Below are positions 13,059-13,510 of a DNA stretch of 32,023 nt, piece after piece. The stretch lies in the NCBI GenBank assembly GCA_964016885.1, contig CAXHJY010001440.1, positions 1 to 32,023 of the forward strand. Direction: 5' to 3'. Within the stretch, counting starts at the first letter, position 1. The number at the start of each line of letters is the position of its first letter. The DNA comes from Eledone cirrhosa (lineage: Eukaryota). The position numbers and the translations under genes were made by a program. The notes below the pieces were generated by a model. That model saw only the letters and a list, made by a program, of their open reading frames with translations, was not told the origin of the DNA and made no database searches.

Positions 13059-13133
13059 TGTTTATCCCGTGTTCAATCGGGGTAACCACAGTAAGTAAGG
13101 TACTTAATACATAGCAGAGTATAAATATTTAAT

Positions 13134-13192
13134 ATAGGGCTTTCCTGATGATTCTCTACCGAATGAAACAGTTCTAGTCCTGTAGAAGCTAT
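13134..13192 (+). ncRNA. Type I hammerhead ribozyme motif
   Basis: ggctttc-CTGATGA(13145-13151)-TTC-tctacc-GAA-t-GAAA(13165-13168)-CAG-ttctagtc-CTG-TA(13184)-gaagct. All core nucleotides are present. Stem III is 4 bp, stem I is ttc/gaa plus ggc/gct with a bulge, and the triplet is GUA. Stem II is short and lacks the canonical 10.1:11.1 pair. Confidence 0.65.
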
Positions 13193-13510
13193 TTATATAT
13201 ATATATATATATATATATATATATATATATATATATATATATATATATATATATATATATATATATATATATATATATATATATGTATATATATATATAT
13301 ATATATATACAGAGACAGAGAGAGAGAGAGAGAGAGAGAGAGAGCGGGGTGAGATGAAGAGAGAGAGAGGAGGGTAAAATCCCGACCGCAGCGCCAAGTG
13401 ATCAATATTTTACCTATCTCTATACCCACTCTGCATCTCCCATGCATTGAGTACTCCCGTGATTAGTGGTCTCTCCGGTGCCAGCACCACAGGCTCCCCC
13501 TCTCTCTCTG

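Follow-up and report, generated by a model that had tools for sequence, protein, structure and literature searches.

Insertions of the kind described here have precedents among Penelope-like elements (PLEs). Inverted copies of the 5' end, one-sided tails, targeting of TA repeats and hammerheads residing in pLTRs have been published for the Hydra clade (Craig et al. 2021, PMC8557442), whose elements are generally under 3 kb, a size that is a tendency and not a strict criterion. Pairs of hammerheads in opposite strands have been traced to truncated PLEs (Cervera & de la Pena 2014, PMC4209133), and a TATA-Inr arrangement has been found in a pLTR (PMC3846280). An Anolis PLE assayed in vitro cuts and extends both target strands, uses two internal RNA starts that define the tail, and copies mainly unprocessed RNA (Frangieh et al. 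2024, PMC11167929). How PLEs make inverted, one-tailed insertions, and which role their hammerheads play, are open questions (PMC8557442, PMC11167929). Type I hammerheads are also hosted by the metazoan non-LTR retrozymes, short non-coding repeats dispersed in the genome (Cervera & de la Pena 2020, PMC7229834; Li et al. 2026, 10.64898/2026.07.22.740005).

The window, which is the whole stretch of 32,023 nt of Eledone cirrhosa DNA analysed in this work, carries at 13059-13193 an insert located between two (TA)n tracts, as can be read directly from the sequence (Table 1). The original prediction regarded the insert as a tiny non-autonomous, TA-targeting element of the retrozyme type. The targeting finds support in the TA tracts present at both sides, and in 26/29 look-alikes of the insert which, by eye, have a TA or TG tract directly 5'; within such tracts target-site duplications are unreadable. 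The classification is not supported, because the insert has no promoter and is not tandem, and in sister subfamilies RT-EN ORFs are flanked by this very pLTR. Judging from the sequence, the insert is not one RNA unit, but consists of two segments from the 5' end of a Hydra-type, protein-coding PLE, joined in opposite orientation. We consider it probable that it is a head-to-head, two-armed PLE stub with Hydra-clade motifs, resulting from a TA tract cut in both strands and from the reverse transcription of the 5' end of an uncleaved, probably capped mRNA.

Table 1. Features of the insert and of its flanks, in window coordinates. Element positions are numbered from the first G of helix I (+1); a dot means that no strand applies.
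Feature	Position	Strand	Remarks
Left (TA)n tract, insertion target	12818..13058	.	One interruption at 12852
Inverted "tail" arm, outer end at site B	13059..13137	-	Element ~+57 to +132
Bulged hairpin just 3' of site A in element RNA	13101..13121	-	One stem pair broken at 13105 in the window copy
Junction G, common to the inverted arm and possibly to the cap-derived extra G of the forward arm	13137	+	
Forward arm, site A class, with whole uncleaved type I hammerhead	13138..13193	+	Element +1 to ~+60
Hammerhead core, helix II (one extra C), helix III, GUA site	13145..13184	+	Predicted cut after 13184
Right (TA)n tract	13194..13309	.	Read from sequence

The left 79 nt of the insert, read in the minus strand, correspond to the "tail" which follows the hammerhead at the 3' side in colinear copies (L004, L041, L048). 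This arm matches the pLTRs linked to ORFs at 67-72/78 nt, and the colinear copies L048 and L081 at up to 74/78; the forward arm matches the ORF-linked pLTRs at 48-50/56 nt, and its closest stubs at 51-52/56. Identity of the window arms to the ORF-linked pLTRs thus ranges from 86 to 92%, the ORF-linked copies being sister subfamilies. The origin of the G at 13137 is ambiguous from the window copy alone. Two further hairpins had been described in the insert, and both are present (13062-13069/13078-13085 and 13092-13097/13101-13106), but since they lie in the left half, which derives from the opposite strand, they fall outside the hammerhead's RNA in the arrangement found in the window. The predicted fold of the 136-nt insert is unremarkable (z -1.58), and the hammerhead helices have near-zero probability in it.

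The type I hammerhead had been correctly recognized. The core boxes CTGATGA (13145-13151) and GAAA (13165-13168), the 4-bp helix III (13168-13171/13180-13183), the GUA site and helix I (13138-13144/13185-13190, with one bulged T) are all in place. Helix III is closed, as claimed; its description as non-palindromic applies less well, as the 8-nt loop carries a central CTAG palindrome. Helix II was suspected to have lost a base. A base was in fact gained, because the core boxes are separated by 13 nt in the window copy, and by 12 in the family. The Rfam search that had been proposed as a check was negative: hammerhead models gave no match at E<=1 in the window, and none even at E<=10 in the insert. 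The bare core motif occurs four times in the window, against 1.15 expected in shuffles of the same sequence. According to nearest-neighbour folding, the catalytic fold of the window copy (+1.0 kcal/mol) is 7.7 kcal/mol off the minimum (-6.7); in the family copy L087 the corresponding values are -8.3 and -9.3 kcal/mol. On these calculations the window copy is predicted to misfold, and its ribozyme is decaying and likely dead. It is an ordinary decayed stub.

In the copies of the family, 12 nt separate the core boxes, and helix II consists of 3 bp with a U.U pair at the base and a variable 4-nt loop 2. Helix II lacks the basal G10.1-C11.1 pair, which is replaced by U.U throughout the family. The CUGANGA/GAAA/UH core, the type I order and the three helices are kept, with 95.8% of the cells paired in 24 distinct copies. 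The covariation expected for helices I-III was found for helix I, and not for helices II and III. Among 25 copies picked across subfamilies, bulged-T types left out, helix I has two compensatory pairs and a score that is reached by 0/500 shuffles; the changes reflect about two events, not 16. No covariation above shuffles was observed in a decayed set of 40 copies, mostly of the same subfamily. Pairing and folding together make it likely that the family motif is a real but weak ribozyme. A U.U pair in this position has a natural precedent in the axolotl HHR_Amex2, which cleaves weakly as a monomer (PMC7229834).

The insert is multicopy, as anticipated. The 25-mer at 13165-13189, which spans helix III, has 10,643 exact matches in the 3.0-Gb assembly, against 0 for a control; together with the compensatory pairs of helix I, this indicates that the hammerhead is not a product of chance. 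A similarity search with the insert returned 3103 first-look candidates, and 39 non-self, near-full-length matches were scored at 84-93%. Opposite orientation is the rule among neighbours: within 1 kb, the first 100 of the 10,643 matches form ten head-to-head pairs and one same-strand pair. A positional sample, made up of 96 of the first 100 matches listed on contig C1, resolved into 68 distinct insertions, 51 of which are two-armed and head-to-head, while 17 were called single-armed. The outer ends of the arms fall at two sites, A, ragged and located at ~+55 to +80, and B, at ~+130. The 49 two-armed inserts that could be classified are unevenly distributed, 43 being A+B, 6 A+A and none B+B (p 3e-8); at least two of the six A+A cases are mapping artefacts, L131, L137 and L173 are doubtful as A+A, and automated classification missed L138 as A+B and merged L162. 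In 2/51 inserts one outer end is intermediate.

Junctions vary from copy to copy. The tail-only inverted arm seen in the window occurs in ~3/43 two-armed inserts of the positional sample, at the minority end of a continuum of junctions. The window junction was recognized by eye in 9/30 look-alikes, which were chosen for similarity to the insert, and is found on four loop-2 subfamily backgrounds, a pattern that fits repeated independent formation. Six different tail-to-hammerhead joints were identified in contigs of two sequencing runs, of unrecorded kind and possibly from the same sample as the assembly. Some copies reside in larger units. One stub has been multiplied with identical flanks inside a larger repeated segment (L062-L065 and ~12 more C1 loci), and inflates raw counts. 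In L220-L235 a pLTR copy lies inside a larger young composite repeat, clustered on C18, with the ends of RTE-type ORFs upstream and a downstream flank common to the copies.

Other repeats were noticed along the way. Two hammerhead cores of other families are found in the window (1988-2011, minus strand, and 28352-28375, plus strand), both with TA or TGA repeats nearby. An abundant SINE-like repeat, probably an octopus SINE, has copies at 12560-12750, 13500-13660 and 21157-21519, one as a tandem trimer. A young 45-bp tandem array (24.8 copies, 96% matches) spans 9885-11002. Elsewhere in the genome, a further TA-flanked repeat (L252-L280), unrelated to the stubs, has tandem units, ends in two alternative ways at the 3' side, and looks like another PLE-type or retrozyme-type family.

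The parent of the stubs includes, in order, a CCAAT box, a TATA box, the hammerhead, site A (~+60 to +75), site B (~+130), an ATG at ~+180, an RT-EN ORF, a 3' UTR rich in microsatellites and a second pLTR. The ORF starts ~50 nt past site B, and the two promoter boxes are found upstream of the hammerhead in the longer copies. An upstream walk in a sister subfamily led to a decayed endonuclease end (L249). This endonuclease, used as a query, revealed the family's pLTR, inverted and just upstream of a truncated ORF, in 12/29 other loci; by the hammerhead/tail motif the same loci scored 8/29, against 1/29 and 2/29 in two control sets, one of which consisted of loci of an unrelated TA-flanked repeat. 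Twelve long regions were chosen, and the pLTR-hammerhead-tail unit continues past site B into the ORF in five of them; a second pLTR follows 2.2-3.2 kb after the ORF in 5/12. The ORF start, searched as well, identified 30 loci, with the core upstream in 17 by strict motif (18 were counted, one false) and in ~22 by eye. The view of a multicopy, retroelement-derived family linked to PLEs was right: in ORF-linked copies the pLTR-hammerhead-tail unit runs into an RT–GIY-YIG ORF.

Features of the encoded protein point to the Hydra clade. L353 has a 651-aa frame from the ATG, and a YRDD motif can be read directly in translation; L316 and L312 carry, between hammerhead-containing pLTRs, an ORF with RT and C-terminal GIY-YIG; in L318 two ORFs lie head-to-head with a tail-only arm between them. 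Pfam matches to GIY-YIG were weak (E 2e-4 and 1.5e-3) and below the cut-off, with none for L353. By eye, the translations of L286, L303 and L353 contain DKT, the CxCX5C linker, and CxxC and CxH around the conserved E and N, and their EN lacks CCHH. The N-terminal motif is RWR in most copies, and RWK, the Hydra-clade motif, in L338. The ORF of ~2.1 kb and the UTR of 2.2-3.2 kb that precedes the second pLTR, microsatellite-rich and often interrupted, bring the parent above 3 kb. Protein homologs number 1273, the best at 52% identity, and none is named among the 120 listed.

Not all subfamilies could be followed to an ORF. No ORF- or promoter-linked copy of the loop-2 subtype of the window (TACC/TCCC) was found among the loci analysed, and in the CTTC subfamily the upstream walk came to a TA tract without meeting an ORF in any of 30 loci. 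The CTTC long forms (L190-L219) have a common 5' boundary, which coincides with a TA tract and precedes the hammerhead by ~430 nt; either the subfamily is non-autonomous, or its long forms are broken by an internal microsatellite. Two other sources of the stubs were discarded. In L056 a Neptune-type ORF (RT-ZnF-GIY-YIG) adjoins the pLTR, but it comes with a pLTR of its own and a minimal hammerhead, and only 2/30 of its EN loci carry the pLTR of the hammerhead family. Origin from a DNA transposon (MITE) is at odds with the unequal arms, and with ends mapping to an RNA-like unit endowed with promoter and ORF. In L056 (G000:C1:262645500-262653500) a truncated Neptune-type ORF directly adjoins an inverted Hydra-type pLTR arm, possibly as the result of an insertion involving two RNAs and two families.

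The inner ends of the arms were mapped at 44 anchors, all in subfamilies whose upstream sequence is known. Most (32 in total) fall at +1..+4 (18) or at +5..+13 (14); of the others, 3 are at -20..-1, 6 further upstream, and 3 beyond +13. In four subfamilies the first T of the TATA box precedes +1 by 30+/-1 nt. A G occupies position -1 in 28/40 stubs, and in 13/16 of those whose parent has T or C there, against a background of 12%; in several Hydra stubs this G could derive from the other arm. An extra G in L1 and SVA has been attributed to copying of the cap (PMC3287187). In the Neptune-type family 49/56 arms, drawn from 30 positional loci, 8 chosen pairs and 12 further singles, stop within 16 nt of the anchor, and 7 run through; the modal stop is 31 nt after the TATA box, and ~40 nt upstream of the hammerhead core of this family. 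The base preceding it is C in 10 cases, A in 5 and G in 2, and is mostly explained by the other arm. The promoter-proximal stop, therefore, replicates in a second family; the extra G does not. The Neptune-type PLE, which carries a minimal hammerhead, is abundant (11,160 candidates; 4,957 exact 18-mers), and has 775-aa open frames with RT, zinc finger and GIY-YIG (L182, L183, L186). A two-armed stub of this type resides in the window at 5575-5745; one arm has the tail, the other lacks it, so that a second PLE clade displays the same A+B geometry. A weak Rfam match to mir-3910 is due to the palindrome of this stub.

A bulged hairpin follows site A. In the 79/133 distinct tails that fit the frame (54/133 did not), the central base pair of the upper stem is G.U in 62 tails, A-U in 16 and a different one in the remaining tail, a pattern which fits pairing on the element-sense strand, minus in the window. 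The A end of the window copy is ~17 nt before the hairpin, not 1-5. Site B is followed, 6-10 nt on, by a plain stem-loop of 4-5 bp, which is not a twin of the bulged hairpin. The 3' end of the coral element Hydra-2_Amil, in the supplement of PMC8557442, has by eye the same outline as the site A hairpin.

A plausible scenario is the following. Position +1 would be the transcription start, and the pLTR promoter would direct the synthesis of a capped mRNA beginning with helix I. The element protein would cut both strands of a (TA)n tract, and reverse transcription would start at A from one cut end, and at B from the other, in agreement with the in vitro behaviour of the Anolis PLE (PMC11167929), the two start sites being presumably set by the hairpins just 3'. 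If the promoter-proximal A/B pair is used, the cDNAs would run off the 5' end of the RNA after at most ~70 and ~130 nt, respectively, and their ends would be joined by microhomology. In the window copy, the B-primed cDNA would have stopped at +57, and have been joined to a complete A-primed cDNA. Being devoid of a promoter, a stub is likely a dead end. It may be speculated that cleavage at +46 would part the downstream pLTR start sites from the ORF, and that a weak ribozyme would for this reason suit the element. Whether the stubs as a whole can be taken as a genome-wide fossil record of PLE integration, in which one RT-EN complex acts on both target strands, with one RNA start site each, and copies a capped mRNA with an uncleaved 5' hammerhead, in most events for no more than its first 60-130 bases because both start sites precede the ORF, is in our judgement evenly balanced.

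The insert could be a PLE stub, and yet have been inverted by self-priming, or fold-back, on one antisense template, the stop at +1 being due to pausing or pairing at helix I. Head-to-head palindromic junctions have been read in this way in rotifer Penelope elements (PMC3846280), the complementarity of helix I provides microhomology at +1..+6, and short palindromes lie at the centre of some junctions (L074, L148). Fold-back is nevertheless unlikely, because both outer ends fall at fixed, different sites flush with TA, and the G at -1 is non-parental. Moreover, the Neptune-type stop at TATA+31 is too far upstream of the core to be explained by helix I. It is more doubtful still that the arms came from two RNA molecules, one cleaved by the ribozyme at +46/+47, and that cleavage shaped the junction. 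Inverted arms end at +46 to +48 in 5/30 look-alikes, but ends at +47 are also expected from microhomology between the two helix I arms; L056 joins a Hydra-type arm to the ORF of another family, but most arms hold an intact, uncleaved hammerhead. Least credible of all is a small non-autonomous retrozyme or SINE-like element, in which the 136-nt inverted unit is transcribed, self-cleaving and re-copied, because the intact core, the 39 look-alikes and the junction recurring in 9/30 of the look-alikes are offset by the selection of look-alikes for similarity, by the rarity of the tail-only geometry (~3/43) within a continuum of junctions, by the four subfamily backgrounds on which the junction recurs, by the lack of tandem arrays among the first 100 matches and of a promoter in the stub, and by the predicted fold of the whole insert, in which the hammerhead helices hardly form.

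Taken as stubs of a Hydra-type PLE primed at A and B, the inserts are close to several described systems, and identical to none. The family shares with the Hydra clade the single RT-EN ORF, the DKT, CxCX5C, CxxC and CxH motifs, the pLTR hammerhead, (TA)n targets, the inverted 5' copy and the one-sided tail (PMC8557442). It differs from the published Hydra elements, as its helix III 13-mer is absent from the supplement of that report, where the hammerhead of Hydra-1_Obim combines a long helix II with a minimal helix III, the reverse of the family described here. The tail is ~60-70 nt, against 30-40 in the Hydra clade (PMC8557442), the 3' UTR is long and rich in microsatellites, and stubs far outnumber the ORF-linked copies. 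Two internal RT starts that bound the tail 3' of the hammerhead, AT-rich targets, and uncleaved RNA as template are also features of Poseidon PAc of Anolis (PMC11167929). The ORF of PAc, in contrast, starts inside the hammerhead, not past site B, and the accessible text on PAc reports neither one start site per arm nor run-off at the transcription start (PMC11167929). Retrozymes are similar in being short, non-coding dispersed repeats with a type I hammerhead, and HHR_Amex2 even has the same U.U pair; yet retrozymes are tandem units of ~300 nt giving rise to circular RNA (PMC7229834), and the insert is a two-armed inversion derived directly from an ORF-bearing element. Dispersed PLE hammerheads, of which thousands per genome are solitary and have been attributed to truncated PLEs, also include opposite-strand pairs 100-700 bp apart; the metazoan motifs reported have a minimal helix III and a long helix II (PMC4209133), whereas helix III is 4 bp and helix II 3 bp in this family. 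Neither the hammerhead family, nor stubs ending at the transcription start, were found in the open-access literature or in the supplement of PMC8557442.

If the proposed scenario is true, such stubs should not be annotated as retrozymes, MITEs or miRNA hairpins, and the thousands of solitary or opposite-strand hammerheads of animal genomes (PMC4209133) would be explained. Predictions at the level of single bases, namely starts at A and B, run-off at +1 and the extra G, would become available for in vitro assays. If the stubs are a fossil record of PLE integration, their ends would map, in different clades and with DNA as the sole source, the transcription and reverse-transcription starts of PLEs, and hammerhead cleavage would restrict transposition and not make it possible.
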